DNA from: Candidatus Poribacteria bacterium
GTDB taxonomy: Bacteria > Poribacteria > WGA-4E > PCPOR2b
NCBI GenBank assembly: GCA_965218095.1
Contig: OZ244587.1
Span: 3,616,001 to 3,680,000, forward strand
Direction: 5' to 3'
Length of the DNA stretch: 64,000 bases
A model generated the notes under the pieces. That model ran no database searches, was not told the DNA's origin, and worked only from the letters and a program-made list of their open reading frames with translations. Positions 20,041-47,732 of this stretch are shown in pieces. A program made the translations under genes and the position numbers. Each line of letters starts with the position of its first letter. Position 1 is the stretch's first letter.

Positions 20041-21273
20041 TTAAAGCGTTGTCATCAATTTCCGGAATGCGTTCAGTTGCGGTTGAATCACATGTGGTTC
20101 AGGAACTCTTCCGTCGAGGGCTTCGATGGTTTTCAGCCCGTTACCGGTGATGCTGACAACAATGCGATCGTCCCGACTGATGCGTCCACTTTCGATTAGC
20201 TTTTTCGCCGCCGCGAGCGTGACGCCGCCTGCCGTTTCAGTGAAGATGCCTTCCGTCGCCGCAAGGAGTTTGATGGATTCGACGATTTCATCATCGGTCG
20301 CATGTTCCCCGTATCCACCCGAATCCCGCACCGTTGCGGTGGCATAAATTCCGTCGGCGGGGTTGCCAATCGCGAGGGATTTGGCGATGGTGTTCGGTTT
20401 AACCGGCTTGACGAAATCACTATTCTCCTTGAGCGCCGTGACGATAGGTCCACAGCCTTCAGCCTGTGCGACGTGAATCTTCGTTTTCGGCGCGTTGATT
20501 AGGCCCAGCATATGGAATTCTTTCAGCGCCTTGCCGACCTTTGTAATAAGCGAACCGCCCGCCGCAGGCACGATGATGTGATCGGGCGCCTCCCAACCGA
20601 GTTGCTCAATGATCTCATACGTGAAAGTCTTGGAGCCTTCCGCATAAAATGGACGGATATTGATGTTGACAAACGCCCACGGGTAGACGCCGGCAATTTC
20701 GCTGCATAGGCGGTTAACATCGTCGTAGGTGCCTGTGATGCCAACCACCGTCGGTGCGTAAACGAGCGAAGCGACTACTTTGCCCATCTCCAAATCCGCA
20801 GGAATAAAGATGAAGCAGTTGAGGTTGGCAATCGCCGCGTTTGCCGCGACGGAGTTTGCCAGATTGCCGGTCGAAGCGCACGAAACGGTGTCGAAGCCAA
20901 ACTCCTTCGCTTTACTCAGCGCAATTGCAACCACACGGTCTTTGAAGGAAAGGGTCGGGTGACACACCGAGTCATCTTTGATATAAAGCGTCTCCACGTC
21001 GAGCGCTGCCTCCAGATTTTTGGCGCGGATCAACGGCGTGAATCCCGAATTGAACCCGTCCGTCGGTTCTCCGTCAATTGGCAGCAGGTCGGCATAACGC
21101 CAGAGGCTTGCAGGCCCTCGCTCAATCGATTCACGCGAGATCGACTTTTGGATCTCCTCATAGTTGTAGTCCACCTCAAGTGGACCAAAACAGAACTCAC
21201 ACACATGCAGAGGTTCTTTGGGATACTTTCTCTCACATTCACGACATTTCAATCCCAATACTTTTTCTTTCAT
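20041..21273 (-). CDS. thrC: Threonine synthase-like PLP enzyme (Zn-ribbon subtype)
   Basis: CREC..VCEFCFGPLEV, PTLSFKDR (PLP Lys), ASTGNLA, EGSKT and TGNGLKT motifs. GGAG precedes the ATG at 21273. Confidence 0.9.
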   Translation of the reverse strand: MKEKVLGLKCRECERKYPKEPLHVCEFCFGPLEVDYNYEEIQKSISRESIERGPASLWRYADLLPIDGEPTDGFNSGFTPLIRAKNLEAALDVETLYIKDDSVCHPTLSFKDRVVAIALSKAKEFGFDTVSCASTGNLANSVAANAAIANLNCFIFIPADLEMGKVVASLVYAPTVVGITGTYDDVNRLCSEIAGVYPWAFVNINIRPFYAEGSKTFTYEIIEQLGWEAPDHIIVPAAGGSLITKVGKALKEFHMLGLINAPKTKIHVAQAEGCGPIVTALKENSDFVKPVKPNTIAKSLAIGNPADGIYATATVRDSGGYGEHATDDEIVESIKLLAATEGIFTETAGGVTLAAAKKLIESGRISRDDRIVVSITGNGLKTIEALDGRVPEPHVIQPQLNAFRKLMTTL

Positions 21274-21327
21274 TTTTCTCTCCATTGGTTTAGAATATTA
21301 GGTTCTGTAGTTCAAAGCACCAGAAAT

Positions 21328-21362
21328 AAAAAAGCCTATTACCACGGTTGTGATAATAGGCA
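21328..21362 (-). terminator. Intrinsic terminator in the thrC 5' leader
   Basis: GCCTATTATCAC-AACC-GTGGTAATAGGC-TTTTTT on the minus strand, about 55 nt before the start codon. Confidence 0.85.
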
Positions 21363-21404
21363 ATCCTGTAGAGCATATATGTTAAACACAATCTCAATTC
21401 AGAT

Positions 21405-21536
21405 CTAAAGCTGCCTATTTTCACCCAAACCCATGAACATTGCGATAGCAATGCCCATGCAACGCATGTACATTGTCGTATTCACAAAGCAGATAAGGGG
21501 GTAAATCGGGGGAGTATTGAAGTGAGATTGCTGCAC
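21405..21536 (-). CDS. Putative Met/Cys-rich leader peptide (43 aa)
   Basis: GTG...TAG frame reading MQQSHFNTPPIYPLICFVNTTMYMRCMGIAIAMFMGLGENRQL; AGGT lies 9 nt upstream; the 3' end overlaps the antiterminator arm. Confidence 0.6.
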   Translation of the reverse strand: MQQSHFNTPPIYPLICFVNTTMYMRCMGIAIAMFMGLGENRQL

Positions 21537-21581
21537 TATTTTATTACCTGTATTGTTTTGTTTGCTTGCAAAATTTGCTTT

Positions 21582-21611
21582 ATTTTAGCACAAGCCCTTA
21601 TATAAAGGCAA
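21582..21611 (-). promoter_or_regulatory. Sigma70-type promoter for leader-thrC
   Basis: TTGCCT-N18-TAAAAT with an extended TG. Confidence 0.55.
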
Positions 21612-21737
21612 GCGAAAATCATCAACCAACATAAGGAGTAACTTATAATATGTCTCCTGGTGAATTTGCACTTATTTTTGACTTGAGCCACAAACCCTGC
21701 ACAAACCTGAAAAATAAAATACCATCACCGCTGATTA

Positions 21738-22317: not shown

Positions 22318-23193
22318 CTATATGCCCAACTTTGCCAGTACAGCTTGGGTGGAGATCATGTGTTTACTGAAGCCCAACTCCTTCGGCAAGAAACCAAGCG
22401 CCAGGCCAATCAACTGCGGAAGGTGTAGAACTGGCATATCAAGCTGACGGCCGACCACTCGGCTGACGCCAGGCTGCTGGAGGTCGAGGTTCATGTGACA
22501 GAGTGGGCAAGGTGTTACCATGCAGTCTGAACCTTTGTCCTTCGCTTCGCCGATGTGCTTCCCTGCCATTTTGAACGCCGCCTCTTCGTTCTCTAAGCCG
22601 ATGGGAAAGCCGCAGCAGCGAGTCTTGCCGTCATAGTCCACGGGGATTGCACCCAGGGCTTCAATCACGCACTCCATTGAAGTCGGGTTGTCGGGGTCAT
22701 CAATACCCATGATGGTCGCGGGACGCAGGATGTAGCAACCGTAAAATGGTGCAACCCGCAGGTCAGTCAACGGCTTTTTGACCTTGTCGCGCAGATTGTC
22801 CAGGCCAAGCTCCTTGATAATGACGTAGAGAATGTGCGTGACATTCACACCCCCGTGATACCCGTGCCCGCCGGACTTGAGTACCGCGTTGACCTCTGCG
22901 CGGTAGCCTTCATCCTCGGACAGTTTCTGATTGCTTTTGCGAAGGCAGCCGATGCAGGTTGAGCAGATCGTCATCAGCGGCAAGTCCAACTCTTCAGCGA
23001 GCGCAAGGGTCTTGGCGTTATAAGTGTCGGCGAGGACCGGATTCTGCGCTTGCAAAACGCCCGCACCGGTGCAAGGGGCACCATCGAGTTCAACCAACTC
23101 AATGCCGAGCAGCGGTGCAATCTTTTTGGTAGATTGGTTTAGTTCAGGACAGTTTCCCCTGGCGACACAGCCGGGAAAATAAGCAACTCTCAT
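22318..23193 (-). CDS. CCG-domain (HdrB-like) subunit of succinate dehydrogenase
   Basis: AYFPGC, CSTC, FYGC, CCG and [11 protein letters not shown] motifs; follows sdhB. Confidence 0.9.
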
Positions 23194-23410
23194 AAAAATC
23201 TCCTGTATCAATTGTGAAGTGGGAATGGTGTACTATCACTAAATATTTGGTGCACTCCACCTACTTGGGCGCATGAACCCCGTAGCGTAGCGTATAATGC
23301 GTGAAACGTGATGCGTGAGATGCTTCACGTTTTACGTTTCAGTTATGAATCCAGTCATGGTGGGAATTCTCACGAATATAGTAATAGTACAGTAAAATGA
23401 ACCATGCCTA

Positions 23411-24373
23411 CTATTTCCCTTTTTTCCCTTCCAACTCCTCATGTATGCGCTTCACATCCTCGACCTCTGTCACCGACGGATGCGTGCCGGGTAAGGGGGG
23501 TTTGATTTTACCTTTCATGGTCGCCTTGATTGCTGTGCCCATGTTCTTAAAGGCCCAGCCCAAACCCGCTGCCTTAACGGGCAGTGTACGCTCATCAAGT
23601 ACGCCGGTGTGTGCCACGCTCTCGGTGAAGTGAAGCACATGTTTCGCGCCGATGTTATCGGTCAACCCCTCGTCAATTGCCAGTTCGCGTAACTTGATGA
23701 TCCCATCCATCGGCGCAACGGCCTTCGGACAGACCTGCACGCACTCCAAACAACGCGTGCAATCCCAGATGCCGCCTTCTTCACTCAGGTTGGTTAGCCA
23801 CTCTTTGGTTTTGGCGTGACGTGGGTCGCCGACCACACGGTACGCTTTCGCCAGCGCCGCTGGGCCTAAAAATTTTGAGTCCACCTCTAGCACTGTGCAA
23901 TCGCTCACGCACGCGCCGCACATAATGCAATTCATCGGTTGTTGCAGCTCGACCATCTTGCTCTGCGGGACTTGATATTCACGTTCCGGCGGTTCGCCTT
24001 CGGTCTCAATCCACGGCTTAACCTGCTTTAACTTGTCCCAGAACATATCCATATCGGTTACGAGGTCTTTGATCACCTTCATGTTGCCCATCGGCTCCAC
24101 ACGAATCTCTTCACCGTTTGGCGCGAGGGTCGAAACTTTGGTCTTACACCCCAACTTCGCGTGCCCGTTGACCCGAAACGAGCATGAGCCGCAAACCGCA
24201 CTGCGACAGGAGCCGCGCATTGTCAGTGTGCCATCTATCTCGTCACGGACTTGGATCAACGCGTCTAGCACCGTCGCAAAGTCGGGCAGGTCTTCCACCT
24301 GATAGGTGTCATAATGGGGTTCCTGGTTTTTCTGCGGGTCGTAACGATAGACTTTTAGATTGGCTTGTATCAT
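23411..24373 (-). CDS. sdhB: Succinate dehydrogenase/fumarate reductase Fe-S subunit
   Basis: SCRSAVCGSC, CIMCGACVSDC and CTRCLECVQVCP motifs. Confidence 0.95.
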   Translation of the reverse strand: MIQANLKVYRYDPQKNQEPHYDTYQVEDLPDFATVLDALIQVRDEIDGTLTMRGSCRSAVCGSCSFRVNGHAKLGCKTKVSTLAPNGEEIRVEPMGNMKVIKDLVTDMDMFWDKLKQVKPWIETEGEPPEREYQVPQSKMVELQQPMNCIMCGACVSDCTVLEVDSKFLGPAALAKAYRVVGDPRHAKTKEWLTNLSEEGGIWDCTRCLECVQVCPKAVAPMDGIIKLRELAIDEGLTDNIGAKHVLHFTESVAHTGVLDERTLPVKAAGLGWAFKNMGTAIKATMKGKIKPPLPGTHPSVTEVEDVKRIHEELEGKKGK

Positions 24374-24437
24374 AGCGTCATCTCCTTTTCATCGACAATT
24401 GACAATTTTCAATCATCATTTCTCGATCGTTAATTCA

Positions 24438-24523
24438 TTAATATTTCTACATCTTTGGCTTCTATTTGGTAATCGCCACCGGCAAGCGTCAATCGCGGGA
24501 GCGTTAGAGGTGGAACAGACAAG
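24438..24523 (-). repeat. Degenerate copy of the sdhA 3' end
   Basis: Aligns codon by codon to 24960-25046 (PAID-LPVAITK*KPKM*KY* versus PAIDYLPVTITKWQPEARKY*). Confidence 0.9.
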
Positions 24524-24586
24524 CGTTTATCAGAAAGCGGCAGCAACGTCAACTTCTTTTGTTTCTGCCATGATCTATTCTGGCGG

Positions 24587-24949
24587 TTACACCGATTCCA
24601 ATTCGTCGAGATACCACCACCAATACGCTTTGGGCATCTTTAGCCGCTGGCGCTCGTACTTGTAGTAATCAAGCGCATGGTCCAGAATCATCCACCACTT
24701 CTTGAAGAAGATTTTGTCAAATTTCTGTACTCGCTGCCAAAGGGAAGCAAGGGCCCCGCCTGTACCACAATGCTTAAATTCCTTTTCCAACGAATCCCGC
24801 TGGAACAACAGGATACCGATTTCCTCCGTCAAGGTATCGTTTTGATGAGCGATTTCTCGCGGGAGAATTTTGGTCAGAGTAACCCTATACCGGAGCACTT
24901 GCTCTCGGAGTTCTTTCAACTCTTTTTTCGTTAGCTGCTGTCGCGCCAT
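24587..24949 (-). CDS. Hypothetical 120-aa protein ending in P..YWWWYLD, inserted between sdhA and sdhB
   Basis: Intact ORF starting 10 nt after the sdhA stop codon. Confidence 0.75.
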   Translation of the reverse strand: MARQQLTKKELKELREQVLRYRVTLTKILPREIAHQNDTLTEEIGILLFQRDSLEKEFKHCGTGGALASLWQRVQKFDKIFFKKWWMILDHALDYYKYERQRLKMPKAYWWWYLDELESV

Positions 24950-24959
24950 TGCTTCGCCC

Positions 24960-26663
24960 TCAATACTTCCGCGCCTCCGGCTGCCATTTGGTAATCGTCA
25001 CCGGCAAGTAGTCAATCGCAGGACCGTCAGGGGTATGGTAGACAACCACATGCTTAAGCCAGTTCTCGTCGTCACGGTTAGGGCAGTCCGTGCGTGTGTG
25101 TGCGCCGCGGCTCTCCTTGCGAGCAAAGGCGCTGGCGATAATCGTTTCCGCGCAGTCGAACATGTAGTCCAACTCCAGGACCGCGAGCAAATCGGTATTG
25201 AACACACGCCCCTTGTCATGAACGGAGACGGTCGGATAGCGCTCGCGGACGGCGAGAATTTGGCGCTGTGCCTCAAGCAAACCTGCCTCTTCACGAAACA
25301 CGCCAGTAAACTCGTGCATAATGTTGCCCATCTCCAGGCGCAATATCGCTGAACGCACGTCGGTCGAACGAGCGAAGATGTCAGCAATTTTCTGCTCCTC
25401 TGTATGCCCGACCTGCTCGGAAACCTTGGCAGCCTTGATGCTCGTGGCATATTCCGCTGCATGTACACCCGCTCTCCGACCGAACGCCACGCAGTCCAGC
25501 AAACTGTTGCCGCCCAATCGGTTCGCCCCATGCGCCGAGACACAAGCAGCCTCGCCGGCGGCGTACAAGCCGGGCAGCGGTTCCGCGCCATCGCCGTTAT
25601 GCCGATAGCAACGCCCGTCTACATCAGTCTTAATGCCACCCATCATGTAATGCATCCCCGGGCAAATGGGCAGGGGTTTTTGCGTAATGTCCACGTCAGC
25701 GTAATCCAGTGCGAGTTCGGAAATCTGATGGAACGCCTCTAAGATGCGGTCTTTGATATGACGGCAATCCAGAAGTACGCAGCCATCTACCCCGCGTCCC
25801 TCTTGAATCTCAATCGTCTCTGCACGGGAGACAACATCACGGGAGGCTTTTTCCGCCAGTATCGTTGCCCCGTAGCGTTCCTCCTGCATAAACCGATCTC
25901 CCTCGGAGTTCAGCAAATACGCACCTTCGCCGCGTGCCCCCTCTGTGATGAGAAAGCCGTTGGCGGGAAGCGTGGTCGGATGATATTGCACCATCTCCAT
26001 GTCCATGAGCAGTGCGCCTGCGCGGTAGGCTAAGGCCAACCCATCACCCGTCACGATAAGTCCATTGGTGCTTGGTTCGTAAACCCGTCCACAGCCGCCG
26101 GTGCAGAGGATGACCGCTTTTGCCTTGAAAACTTCCAACTTGCCGCTGACCATCTCCATCGCCACTGCACCGCAACATGCCCCATCCTCCATAAGCAGTG
26201 TCGTCACGAACCATTCGTCGTAGGATTTGACATTGTTTTTGAGCAGTCGTTCATACATGACATGCAGGATGGTCTGCCCAGTCATGTCACCGACATGGCA
26301 GGTGCGGCTCTTGTCAGTGCCACCGAAGCCGCGCATGTGGATGTATCCCTTTTCGTCGCGGTCGAAGATGACGCCCCAATGTTCAAGGGTGAAAACGTCT
26401 TCAATGCCTTCGCGGCACAGAATCTCGATGGCGTCCTGGTCACCTAAGAAGTCGCTGCCCTTAACGGTTTCATAGGCGTGGACCTCCCACGAGTCCTCAA
26501 TGCCGATTGCTGCGTTGATGCCGCCTTGCGCCGCCGCCGAATGAGAGCGCGTCGGGTAAACCTTAGACATCATCGCCACATTGGCGCCTGCCTCTCCCGC
26601 ATGTAGGGCGGTGCTCATTCCCGCTAAACCACCACCAATAACGAGCACATCGTGTTCAATCAT
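24960..26663 (-). CDS. sdhA: Succinate dehydrogenase/fumarate reductase flavoprotein
   Basis: GGGLAG, RSHSAAAQGG, QYHPT, TEGARGEG, HGANRLGGNSL and ESRGAH motifs. Confidence 0.97.
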   Translation of the reverse strand: MIEHDVLVIGGGLAGMSTALHAGEAGANVAMMSKVYPTRSHSAAAQGGINAAIGIEDSWEVHAYETVKGSDFLGDQDAIEILCREGIEDVFTLEHWGVIFDRDEKGYIHMRGFGGTDKSRTCHVGDMTGQTILHVMYERLLKNNVKSYDEWFVTTLLMEDGACCGAVAMEMVSGKLEVFKAKAVILCTGGCGRVYEPSTNGLIVTGDGLALAYRAGALLMDMEMVQYHPTTLPANGFLITEGARGEGAYLLNSEGDRFMQEERYGATILAEKASRDVVSRAETIEIQEGRGVDGCVLLDCRHIKDRILEAFHQISELALDYADVDITQKPLPICPGMHYMMGGIKTDVDGRCYRHNGDGAEPLPGLYAAGEAACVSAHGANRLGGNSLLDCVAFGRRAGVHAAEYATSIKAAKVSEQVGHTEEQKIADIFARSTDVRSAILRLEMGNIMHEFTGVFREEAGLLEAQRQILAVRERYPTVSVHDKGRVFNTDLLAVLELDYMFDCAETIIASAFARKESRGAHTRTDCPNRDDENWLKHVVVYHTPDGPAIDYLPVTITKWQPEARKY

Positions 26664-45014: not shown

Positions 45015-47732
45015 CTAAACCGGCTCAACGCGAACCGGACAAACCTTGAGCTCTGCTGTCTCCGTAATCGGATCGTAGCCGGAGCCCGTCAGGATGTTCA
45101 CGGGCACGTCGCTGAAGCTGAAGCTGGCGAAGACTGTCCCACGCGGGGAACGGTTTGTGGATTTCACCTTAATCTTCACCGAGCCGCGTACACTTGACAA
45201 CTCACACCACCCACCGTCGGTGAGGCCCCATCCCTTGACATTGGCGGGATTCACCTCAAGCGCCTCTTCGGATAACAGATAGTCAATGCCCTGTGCCCGA
45301 CCGGTTTGTGTGCGCGTGTGGTAAGATTGGAGCCGGCGTCCAGTTGTGAGCCAGACGGGGAATTTCTCGCTAATCGTCTCCGCCGGGTCTCGGTAATGAA
45401 CGACTGAAAAAATGCCACGACCGTTCACAAATTCGCCCTCGTGCAATCTGGGGGTGCCGAGGTGATTCTTGTCAGGCACGGGCCACTGGTACTCGCTCTT
45501 GTCAATGCGGTCCCAATCCAGTCCAGCGTAAATCGGCGAGACGCTGCAAAGCTCGTTGAAGACCTCTTTCGTTGACGCAAAATCGAAGCCCTGAAAGCCC
45601 ATCCTCCGGGCGAGTTGGCAGATAATCCACCAGTCAGGCTTCGCTTGACCCGGCGGTAGCACAGCTGCACGGAGGCGCTGGACGCGACGTTCCGTGTTCG
45701 TACAAACTCCGTCGGTTTCCCCAAAAGCTGTCGCGGGGAGGATGACATCGGCAAGCTGCGCCGTATCGGTCAGGAAAATGTCAATGACGACGAGATGATC
45801 CAAGCTCCGCAGCGCGTGCTCACAGTGCTTTCGGTCAGGGTCGGAGAGCAGGGTGTTCTCGCCGTCAATGAGCATTGCGTGGATTTGGTCGCCGCAGAGG
45901 TTAAGCGCCGTGACTTTAGTGATGCCTTTCTCAAGGTCAATCTCCGTGCCGTAGAGTGCTTTGAACTTCGCCTGGTTCGCCGGGGCCATGACGGACTGGA
46001 AGCCCGGATAGTTGTTCGGGAGCGCGCCACTATCCCCTGCGCCCTGAATGTTGTTCTGACCGCGCATGGGGTTGATGCCGGTTCCTTCGCGGCCGACATT
46101 GCCGGTCATGAGGACGAGGTTGCAGAGGCTTTGCACGTTATCAACGCCGCAGATATGCTCGGTGATGCCGAGCGTGTAGTAGATTGCGGCTTTCTCCGAT
46201 TTGCCATACCACAGCGCGGCGGTCTCAATGTCCTTGGCAGGCACACCCGTAATTTCCTCCGCCCACATCGGCGTAAATTCGACGAGGTGTTCGAGGAAGG
46301 CGTCGCTGTCCGTCGTGCGATGCTCGATAAAACTTCGGTCAATAAGCCCCTCGCGGGCAATGACGTGCGCCATTCCGAGCAACAGGGCGACATCCGAGCC
46401 GACCCGGAGTGGCAGATAGAGGTCTGATAATTCTGCGAGCCCAATGCGCCGTGGGTCGGCGACAATCAACTTCGCGCCGCGTGCAATCGCCTTCTTGAGG
46501 CGCGTTGCTGCGACAGGGTGGCACTCCGTCATATTCGTGCCGATGCAGAAAATCACATCAGGCTTCTCCATGTCAACCAGCGGATTCGACATGGCACCGC
46601 GTCCGATTGTGGCTGCCAGACCGGCAACCGTCGGGGCGTGTCAGGCACGGCTACAGTTGTCGATGTAGTTTGTGCCGAAGCCAACGCGGATGAACTTCTG
46701 CATGAGATAAGCTGCCTCGCTCGGCGCACGACCCGAGGCGACGCCATAGATGCTGTGCCTGCCATGCTTATCGTGCACTTTACGGAAGCCCTTGGCTGCA
46801 CGCTCAAGCGCCTCGTCCCAACTTGCCTCGTGGAGCTCGCCATCCTCGCCACGAACAAGCGGCACCGTAAGCCGGTCGGGGTGGTGCACAAAGTCGAAGG
46901 CGAACTGGCCCTTGACGCAGAGGGCCCCCTCGTTTGCGGGCCCGTCCATCGCCGGGTGGATGCCGACTATTCTATCCGCCTTGGTCAGGAGGTCGATCGA
47001 GCAGCCGACGCCGCAGTAGGGACAGATCGTACGTGTTTTCTCGATTTCACCCGGCAAATCGACCGCACGCATCGCCTTCTTGTCGGCAAGCGCCCCGGTC
47101 GGACAGGTCTGCACACACTGCCCACAAAAGGTGCACGCGGAGTCCTTCAACGTCCCATTAAACTCGGTGGCGATCTGCGTGTGGAAGCCGCGATTCATGA
47201 CGCTGATTGCGTAGTCTCCCTCTTGCTCGGCGCAAACGCGCACGCAGCGGTAGCAGGAAATGCAGAGGTCGTAATCGCGCAGGATAAACGGGTTGGCGTC
47301 GTCTGTATTGCTCGTTCCTGACTGCGCTCCCATGAAACGCCCTGTGCGCGTCCCGTAACGGTTGACGAGAGCCGTCAGTTCCTGCGAAGCATAGCCACGT
47401 AGCGAATCAACATCAAGTTCACGGTTCTCGGAAACAACCATTTCCAGCAAGGTCTTTCGGTACTTATCGATCTCCTCGGCCGCCGTACGGACGACCATAC
47501 CGGGCACCGCTTTCGTCGTGCAGGACGCTACCGGATTCCGAGTCCCTTCAAGTTCGACAACACAGAGGCGACAACCGCCAAAGGCTTCAAGGCGTGGGTC
47601 GTAGCAGAGCGTCGGGATGTGCTTTCGATGCTGCTCCGCGACCTCGTAGATTGTTTCGCCTTCGGTGAAGGTAACTTCCTTTCCGTCAAGTGTTATTGTA
47701 GCGAGTTTCTTCTGTTTCTGATTTGAATTCAT
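45015..47732 (-). CDS. fdhF: Selenocysteine-containing formate dehydrogenase alpha subunit (905 aa)
   Basis: NuoG-like Fe-S N-terminus and CPYCGVGC; DNCSRA-UGA-HAPTVAGL joins two ORFs in frame; RGQNNIQG and molybdopterin C-terminal domain. Confidence 0.95.
46611..46643 (-). promoter_or_regulatory. UGA codon plus bacterial SECIS
   Basis: UGA, 11 nt, then GGUUGCC-GGUCU-GGCAGCC hairpin. Confidence 0.85.

Follow-up and report, generated by a model that had tools for sequence, protein, structure and literature searches.

A candidate methionine-codon leader-peptide attenuator upstream of a threonine synthase-like gene and of metG in Poribacteria

Leader-peptide attenuators of the textbook type sense Trp, His, Phe, Leu, Thr or Ile/Val, while methionine genes use S-adenosylmethionine (SAM) riboswitches, T-boxes or repressors. 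Classical representatives are trpL, hisL, thrL, leuL and pheL of the enterobacterial amino-acid operons as well as pheST, and these systems are reviewed in PMC1183508. The closest literature precedent for a methionine leader is metL, predicted upstream of metNIQ in Streptomyces lividans TK24 with a peptide ending ..ARCMCRRMCAF, which its authors read as a Met-dependent attenuator (PMC8079986). Nothing closer was found in the literature outside subscription journals, where the phrase "methionine-rich leader peptide" gave no match and the combination of Poribacteria and riboswitch returned one unrelated paper only. In Actinobacteria, leader open reading frames (ORFs) with Cys codons have been predicted before cys operons, and the same study reported no RNA element before methionine operons of these bacteria (Seliverstov et al., 2005; PMC1262725). 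With respect to the genes concerned, a thiocarboxylate route from O-phosphohomoserine to homocysteine, comprising MetM, MetO, Mec and MoeZ, has been described, with MetM/MetO from Streptomyces albulus (Hasebe et al., 2024, via GapMind, 2026). MetM is homologous to ThrC, and its annotation as threonine synthase is a frequent error (GapMind, 2026); in S. lividans, genes annotated as 'threonine biosynthesis' lie behind a SAM-I riboswitch (PMC8079986). Here, we analyse the leader of a ThrC-family gene on a stretch of 64,000 nucleotides (nt; termed the window) from the genome of a sponge-associated Poribacteria bacterium, a single contig of 93.9% estimated completeness. For this leader, a first-pass annotation had proposed attenuation by methionine and cysteine codons.

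On comparative grounds, the leader is likely a ribosome-mediated transcription attenuator, and we assign a probability of roughly 0.65 to the reading that such an attenuator has methionine as its signal, reporting the charging of elongator tRNA-Met. In the 5' to 3' direction, its parts (Table 1) are R1, a variable pyrimidine-rich stretch, the Met-codon cluster with the hairpins H1 and H2, R2, the stop codon, R2', a linker of about 27 nt, R3, the loop and R4. The promoter and a 43-codon leader with the residues C16, T20, T21, M22, M24, C26, M27, M33 and M35 were all found where the first-pass annotation had placed them, and this also applies to the antiterminator and to the terminator with its U-tract. 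By hand count on the sequence, R2 (GUGAAAAUAGGCA, 21424-21412) is complementary to UGCCUAUUAUCAC (21362-21350) at 12 of 13 positions, being a near copy of R4, the 3' arm of the terminator GCCTATTATCAC-AACC-GTGGTAATAGGC (21361-21334), which is followed by TTTTTTATTT. The stem of H2 (21459-21432) comprises 12 base pairs (bp). The leader starts with GTG in the window copy and with ATG in other genera, whereas for the downstream gene the ATG at 21272-21270 (MKEK.., with GGAGAG upstream) is the more likely start compared with 21285.

Table 1. Parts of the predicted attenuator and the gene downstream, given as positions in the window.
Feature	Position	Strand	Basis
Promoter-like site: -35 TTGCCT, 18-nt spacer, extended -10 TGcTAAAAT	21582..21611	minus	consensus scan
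Leader ORF, 43 codons plus TAG, GTG start; peptide VQQSHFNTPPIYPLICFVNTTMYMRCMGIAIAMFMGLGENRQL	21405..21536	minus	translation
R1, 5' strand of helix P1, GCAAUCUCACUUCA, codons 2-7	21518..21531	minus	folding and alignment
Met-codon cluster M22, M24, M27, M33, M35	21432..21473	minus	sequence and translation
Hairpin H1, exclusive with H2, containing Met-cluster codons	21473-21451	minus	
Hairpin H2, exclusive with H1, containing Met-cluster codons	21459-21432	minus	
R2, 5' strand of the antiterminator, GUGAAAAUAGGCA, last ORF codons	21412..21424	minus	pairing count
R2', 3' strand of helix P1, UGAAUUGAGAUUG, begins 4 nt past the stop codon	21389..21401	minus	folding and alignment
Intrinsic terminator hairpin, 12 bp: R3 (21350-21361), loop, R4 (21334-21345)	21334..21361	minus	consensus scan
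U-tract UUUUUUAUUU	21324..21333	minus	scan and sequence
ThrC-family pyridoxal-phosphate (PLP) enzyme gene, N-terminal Cys-rich extension	20041..21272	minus	TIGR00260 match

Scanning for consensus motifs does not by itself single out this site, as 1 terminator-like site compares with 1.7 expected by chance and 2 promoter-like sites with 2.6 expected, and the fold of the whole leader is only mildly better than that of shuffled sequences (z = -1.77). The feature is taken as real because it is conserved across relatives. An ortholog of the gene was found in all 41 genomes searched (the source and 40 relatives, at 73-93% identity), and leader DNA was matched by BLAST in 31 of 176 Poribacteria genomes. 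By family, matches were obtained in 26 of the 28 other genomes of the window's own family (f1), in 4 of 11 of family f3 and in none of the remaining 136, with those in f3 comprising the terminator only. Promoter, ORF, antiterminator and terminator recur before the ortholog in 26 of the 28 other genomes of the window's family, where an alignable leader is common to the genera g1, g2, g3, g4, g6 and g7. In g1, as in 10 of the 12 leaders compared from g4, 53-55 nt separate the promoter CTTGCC..TATGCTAAAAT from the start codon of the leader, the distance between promoter and leader start being fixed among relatives. Besides, a GC-rich Poribacteria ortholog of 71% identity has a leader without nucleotide resemblance, which encodes MSLQFRPLVSMRMSLAWSMRRMRRLLRGGSG up to its stop codon and is followed by a hairpin and U-tract, a point in favour of selection on the codons themselves. 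In the source genome itself, a regex search of the whole sequence gave no second copy of the leader. Contigs from sponge metatranscriptomes (four runs of one study) cover 21381-21560 (X2), 21371-21526 (X3), 21451-21700 (X1) and parts of the gene; none of them bridges the terminator, such contigs are blind to ends, strand and level, DNA carry-over is possible, and no conclusion is drawn from them.

The alternative to be weighed first is a translation-independent structured RNA, that is, a riboswitch or the target of an RNA-binding protein sensing SAM, Met or a related signal, in which the ORF would be incidental and the ATG triplets would stem from CAUG-containing stems. We regard this as unlikely, and the way in which the leaders vary is one reason. 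In MAFFT alignments of 32 leaders, the ORF is open in frame in 29, which is weak evidence as other frames are also long and open. By contrast with the region between stop codon and terminator, where about one of roughly six indels is a multiple of three, 10 of the 12 indels within the ORF keep the frame (hand count on two alignments). These are -9 in L012 and in L146, -12 in L026, -3 in L031, three times -3 in L034, a +3 TGC repeat in many g4 leaders, -6 in the window copy and -33 in the metG leaders described below, while the two others (+1 in L012 and -8 in g7) both lie in the last codons and shift the stop only. At a chance of 1/3 each, 10 or more frame-keeping indels in 12 have a probability of about 5e-4, a value limited by the hand count, the relatedness of the sequences and one event being a trinucleotide repeat slip. 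Since indels in the ORF are mostly multiples of three, the leader ORF is probably translated. In addition, the region between R1 and the Met cluster is variable in sequence and length, unlike an aptamer core. At the leader site, Rfam 15 (riboswitches, T-box and Thr_leader included) gave no match at gathering score, and even at E ≤ 10 only three chance-level hits (E 1.7-6.6) were obtained, so that a known riboswitch, which would have spoken against the first-pass annotation, was not found.

The Met codons themselves point in the same direction. Methionine accounts for 2.0% of the residues in long ORFs of the source genome and for 5 of the 42 non-start residues of the window leader, where all five lie within 14 codons and all five ATG triplets are in frame. 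Among the 29 leaders remaining when the copies before the metM-like gene of genus g5 are left out, 122 internal ATGs are in frame versus 5 out of frame (summed by hand over sequences that are not independent), with 2-6 in-frame internal ATGs apiece, a bias not expected from an incidental ORF. In-frame Met codons are retained in six of seven genera (g1, g2, g3, g4, g6 and g7), and Met is the sole residue enriched in every lineage keeping the ORF. The cysteine part of the earlier proposal fell away in the same comparison: cysteine sensing is not conserved, with 19 of 20 g4 leaders having no Cys codon at all. Conservation of the Met/Cys cluster in ortholog leaders was thus borne out for the Met codons of six genera, but neither for the Cys codons nor for the g5 copies before the metM-like gene.

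A homologous leader precedes metG, encoding methionine-tRNA ligase, in all four g5 genomes (L165-L168 in G008, G010, G004 and G012, respectively), with E = 1.7e-17 against the window leader. The identity of metG was scored in one of these genomes (NF008900, 692 bits; cut-off, 598), and the four downstream ORFs are near-identical over their first 60 residues. The promoter type (a related CTTGATA..TGTGCTAAAAT/TGTGATAAAAT), R1, R2', antiterminator and terminator are retained. One of the leader peptides is MAQSQFGLLLMTRFAFLTNTGMSMRSS, and the ORFs end with ..TNTGMSMRSS, ..SNMGMSMCSS and ..SNMCMSMC before the stop and with ..TNIAMSMRST.. in the fourth case. These leaders lack the 33 nt holding H1 and most of H2, yet the ORF and in-frame Met codons are kept, which suggests selection on the Met codons themselves, since the codons persist where the hairpins are gone. 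This is difficult to reconcile with a structured RNA whose stems would generate the ATGs. It also bears on a caveat of the first-pass annotation, according to which a hairpin might explain some of the ATGs. For the window copy this concern is justified, as the ATGs lie in the arms of H1 and H2 and H2 covaries, but it does not extend to the metG leaders, which have Met codons without these hairpins. The metG gene of the source genome has no such leader. As a separate observation, in the same g5 genomes the copy before the metM-like gene is without Met codons, while the whole cassette is reused before metG.

In the mechanism proposed, transcription would start at the conserved promoter, read from the sequence as about 40 nt before the 43-codon ORF. 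With ample methionine, the ribosome would reach the stop codon and cover R2, whereupon the R3:R4 terminator would fold and polymerase would halt at the U-tract before the gene. When Met-tRNA is scarce, the ribosome would stall at M22, M24, M27, M33 or M35, positions predicted to be 1 to 14 codons upstream of the point at which R2 becomes masked. R2 would then stay free and capture R3 once this is made, preventing the terminator and allowing transcription of the gene. If no ribosome is present, R1 would pair with R2' in P1 and other 5' segments would pair near R2, disfavouring the antiterminator, so that the untranslated leader would be terminated too. A MetM-type enzyme would form homocysteine from O-phosphohomoserine and a protein thiocarboxylate, and with the controlled gene placed in methionine synthesis the loop would represent end-product feedback. 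The steps from stalling to antitermination we infer from a barrier model, in which the ribosome blocks pairing across itself, applied to 10 leaders. In 8 of these 10, most A-site positions as far as the last Met codon give an antiterminator probability of about 0.5-0.9, with lower values over the early codons of one leader, and the probability falls to 0 once R2 is masked, within 1-4 codons past the last Met codon (8 of 10). With no ribosome on the leader, 7 of the 10 have a value of ≤0.13, and in 9 of the 10 masking of R2 by the ribosome takes place no later than at the stop codon.

Regarding the helices, 99.7% of cells are paired in the terminator across the 32 leaders, with changes being one-sided (wobble) only, and 91.5% in the R2:R3 antiterminator, where one pair is changed from A-U to G-C in three metG leaders. 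Hence, of the two helices on which the first-pass annotation was based, the antiterminator shows one two-sided pair and the terminator none. P1 (R1:R2') has 91.3% paired cells and two-sided changes in 3 of its 12 pairs, while H2 is 98% paired with two such pairs and H1 84.5% paired without double changes. With R2' positioned between R2 and R3, P1 crosses the antiterminator in a pseudoknot topology that is beyond the reach of the folding program. The stems of H1 and H2 are phased such that each ATG is in frame, with loop lengths preserving the phase, which likewise speaks for selection on the Met codons.

Several findings weigh against methionine attenuation. All Met codons of the window copy are located within the arms of the CAUG-palindrome hairpins H1 and H2, and RNA structure alone could therefore maintain these ATGs; in g3, a compensated change from CAUGG/CCAUG to CAUCG/CGAUG (ATG to ATC) even deletes one Met. 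In g5, internal Met codons are missing from the three aligned leaders of the metM-like gene (L027, L028 and L030), there is no conserved start codon, and the frame is broken in the fourth copy (L029). Family f3 shares the terminator alone, and its short leader ORF is not Met-rich. The Shine-Dalgarno sequence of the leader is weak (AGGU, 9-15 nt upstream), and the window copy starts with GTG. Covariation is modest, as expected from closely related sequences, the terminator having no two-sided pair among its 12, the antiterminator one among 13 and P1 three among 12, and 13 of 500 shuffles reach the observed count. When the full leader is folded at equilibrium with ribosome footprints, the terminator results in every case, which makes this calculation uninformative. 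When only the footprint is masked, the antiterminator is favoured solely with the ribosome on the first 10 or so codons (4 of 5 leaders), whereas with the ribosome at the Met cluster its probability is ≤0.5 and P1 re-forms. Since P1 re-forms behind the ribosome under footprint-only masking, the classical picture requires the barrier assumption or kinetics. Moreover, the stop codon of one metG leader is too distant from R2 for masking, and the g7 antiterminator looks weak, with a probability of 0 at every position. At the level of the gene, no sulfur-carrier gene adjoins it in the window, the neighbours being sdh genes, a small ORF and recD2, and neither a SAM riboswitch nor any other Rfam match at gathering score is present within 1.2 kb in 40 ortholog loci from Poribacteria and other phyla.

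Part of this would suit the structured RNA: the weak Shine-Dalgarno sequence, the g5 leaders before the metM-like gene, which keep antiterminator, terminator and part of the core without conserved ORF or Met, and the compensatory changes in H2 and P1, the latter enclosing the whole region like the closing helix of a riboswitch and appearing in the minimum free energy (MFE) fold of 5 of 5 leaders folded. Against these stand the frame-keeping indels, the in-frame ATGs and the metG leaders. In sum, the Met-codon attenuator postulated in the first-pass annotation is backed by frame-keeping indels, a Met cluster in six genera, the metG leaders of g5 and the lack of any known riboswitch at the site, and we retain it as the preferred reading.

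A leader peptide of other or broader specificity, responding to Thr/Ile for a true threonine synthase or to general translation stress, is quite improbable. The window leader does hold T8, T20, T21 and four Ile codons, the barrier model would give antitermination for any stall in the ORF upstream of R2, and the gene exceeds the NCBIfam thrC cut-off (TIGR00260, 284 bits versus 167; in addition a PALP match). However, the Thr pair is confined to g1 and part of g4, being replaced by TRSM in g6, NMLM in g2 and g3 and STPM in g7, so that the earlier caveat of a Thr/Ile leader loses weight when set against the enrichment of Met alone in all ORF-keeping lineages, and the sister leader would control metG. 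Threonine synthesis is also provided for elsewhere in the source genome. Among its four ThrC-family genes above the NCBIfam cut-off, including the window gene, the best thrC score belongs to a gene that is flanked by those for homoserine dehydrogenase and aspartate kinase in a hom-thrC-lysC operon and is obviously the housekeeping threonine synthase. The window protein is 37% identical to it. Its N-terminal Cys-rich extension lies outside the solved canonical ThrC structures, which match from about residue 58 on, and as the nearest solved structures are all canonical ThrCs, with no structure of a MetM known, this comparison is not discriminating.

Orthologs sharing 64-70% identity with the window gene are found in Omnitrophota, Nitrospirota, Aquificota, Elusimicrobia, Rokubacteria and others, and their surroundings are more telling. 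Of the 100 largest ORFs flanking the 53 loci L066-L118, 58 were scanned, representing 37 of these loci, and genes for ThiS, ThiF, TusA or JAMM (Prok-JAB) were found at a distance of up to 1.2 kb in 17 of the 33 non-Poribacteria loci scanned, with sulfite-reductase-like or CysK genes near other orthologs. In Nitrospirota, one locus (L112) has the gene order JAMM, ThrC paralog and canonical thrC, and in another (L117) the paralog is followed by a TIGR02535-like gene for a proposed homoserine kinase (HomK), contexts that tie the paralog to the O-phosphohomoserine branch point. In the source genome, thrB is present, while MetX and MetA gave no match on the single contig, whose estimated completeness makes their absence likely, and a sole PLP enzyme of Cys/Met metabolism scores below all specific cut-offs. 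Besides, a cluster of cysK, cysH (adenylylsulfate/phosphoadenylylsulfate reductase), a MoaD/SAMP-like carrier and JAMM (G000:C1, about 1745820-1749800; L119 and upstream) is a candidate thiocarboxylate supplier for the MetM-like enzyme. No leader ORF was found before this cluster; the ORF preceding it looks like an Rrf2-type regulator, judged solely by its translation. Because of the separate thrC in its operon, the ThiS/ThiF/JAMM/TusA contexts and the presence of thrB without metX and metA, the window gene probably encodes a MetM-type homocysteine synthase acting on O-phosphohomoserine, in line with the first-pass annotation, which had suggested homocysteine or cysteine rather than threonine as a product.

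A ligand-sensing arrest peptide with the conserved core MYMxxMGIA..SM, for which TnaC and the SAM-responsive nascent peptide of plant CGS1 are models and in which the signal sensed within the ribosome would be free Met or SAM instead of tRNA charging, is highly improbable, as MxMxxMGIA is indeed the best-conserved part of the peptide in g1, g2, g4, g6 and g7 but the RNA pairing in H1 and H2 accounts for this at the nucleotide level, residues change non-conservatively where the stems permit (AVSM versus AMFM; M to I in g3) and the metG leaders are without the core. Two further ideas were rejected, namely a ribosome queue with fixed spacing between start and Met codons, as the first Met of the cluster varies from codon 17 to 22, and a precursor of a ribosomally synthesized and post-translationally modified peptide with its modifying enzyme, as metG has the same leader and those parts of the peptide that are not constrained by RNA are variable. 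A wider variant of methionine attenuation can be put forward only tentatively and remains doubtful. According to this, the cassette of promoter, ORF, antiterminator and terminator might be a portable sensor of Met-tRNA charging that moved in Poribacteria between a homocysteine-synthesis gene and metG, with its codons written in two exclusive hairpins and P1 crossing the antiterminator. The stall might then be read through an RNA relay, via a pseudoknot, or by way of queued ribosomes extending back as far as codons 2-7, and not by simple masking.

Orthologs in other lineages have surroundings of their own. In other Poribacteria families (L049, L056, L058, L059, L061, L064-L066 and L068-L071), the gene is without leader or terminator and follows, often directly, a conserved ORF ending ..NNEFEIVLTI or a variant thereof, which has 370-390 amino acids and no Pfam family in the three copies scanned. 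In Rokubacteria/Methylomirabilota (L079, L096, L098-L103 and L106), a different conserved leader with a TTGACA promoter is situated about 130 nt upstream of the ortholog start, in which ..CTCGGTCGGTG.. is followed by a hairpin and ..TCGGGGCTCAAATCCCCTACCGATGGAGAGGCC ATG, and pairing could mask the Shine-Dalgarno sequence. It gave no Rfam match at gathering score in nine loci or at E ≤ 1 in seven of them, and eight ortholog loci of these phyla were likewise without match at E ≤ 1; this leader may represent a riboswitch not described so far that serves the same family of genes. In g7, a partial duplicate of the Poribacteria leader (L164, 620-920, in G006) is found 1.6 kb upstream of the main copy, before an ORF with signal-peptide-like start. 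In this duplicate, a -10-like box TGCTAAAAT and an ORF with the end ..MYMHSMGIATAMSMP are present, whereas a terminator of the leader type is not. The same genome has a hairpin TGCCTATTATCACAGCTGTGGTAATAGGCTTTTTT nearly identical to the leader terminator at an unrelated locus (L163, G006:C144) without leader-like ORF upstream, which looks like an ordinary terminator.

Within the source genome, the two further ThrC paralogs are found at L003 and L004, one of them flanked by IS3 and IS5 transposase ORFs and the other (NF006050, 603 bits) adjoining ornithine-carbamoyltransferase-like and 2-oxoglutarate-Fe(II)-oxygenase-like genes. Upstream of the leader, an operon of sdhA and sdhB together with a membrane anchor of the SdhE type that has an HdrB-like CCG domain extends over 22318-26663 of the window (minus strand), and between this and the leader lies an ORF of 112 amino acids of no known family. 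Elsewhere in the window, a SECIS_3 element at 46588-46646 (minus strand; 63.9 bits versus a gathering score of 63) implies a selenoprotein gene.

If methionine attenuation holds, methionine would join the amino acids sensed by leader-peptide attenuators, with a homocysteine-synthesis gene and metG sharing the control, and ribosome-mediated attenuation would be at work in an uncultured sponge-associated phylum. The regulatory evidence would also place a widespread, highly conserved "threonine synthase" paralog in methionine synthesis and thereby correct annotation in Poribacteria, Nitrospirota, Omnitrophota, Aquificota and others.

Compared with the classical attenuators, the Poribacteria leader has the same general layout of a short ORF with cognate codons, an R2 at the end of the ORF that would be masked by the terminating ribosome and an intrinsic terminator before the gene, and, as in pheST, an aminoacyl-tRNA synthetase gene (metG) would be under the same kind of control. 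It differs in the phylum and in the amino acid presumably sensed, methionine with its single codon, as well as in Met codons that are spread over 14 codons inside two exclusive hairpins and in a P1 joining codons 2-7 to the region past the stop. With metL of S. lividans it shares a short ORF with Met and Cys codons before a methionine-related operon, whereas metL, a prediction only, is described as leaderless and, according to its authors, without clear intrinsic terminator, and the two have no sequence relationship. The Actinobacteria cys leaders are likewise described as sensing a sulfur amino acid through its leader codons, but with runs of Cys codons, no conserved terminator hairpin and Rho as the proposed factor, while the Poribacteria leader has an intrinsic terminator and no conserved Cys codons. 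As to the gene, the likeness to MetM is one of description: a ThrC homolog apart from the housekeeping ThrC, commonly annotated as threonine synthase and associated with ThiS-like, ThiF-like and JAMM genes as well as with RNA-level control that responds to methionine. Unlike in MetM and the S. lividans case, however, the carrier genes are not adjacent, and a leader peptide would take the place of the SAM riboswitch.

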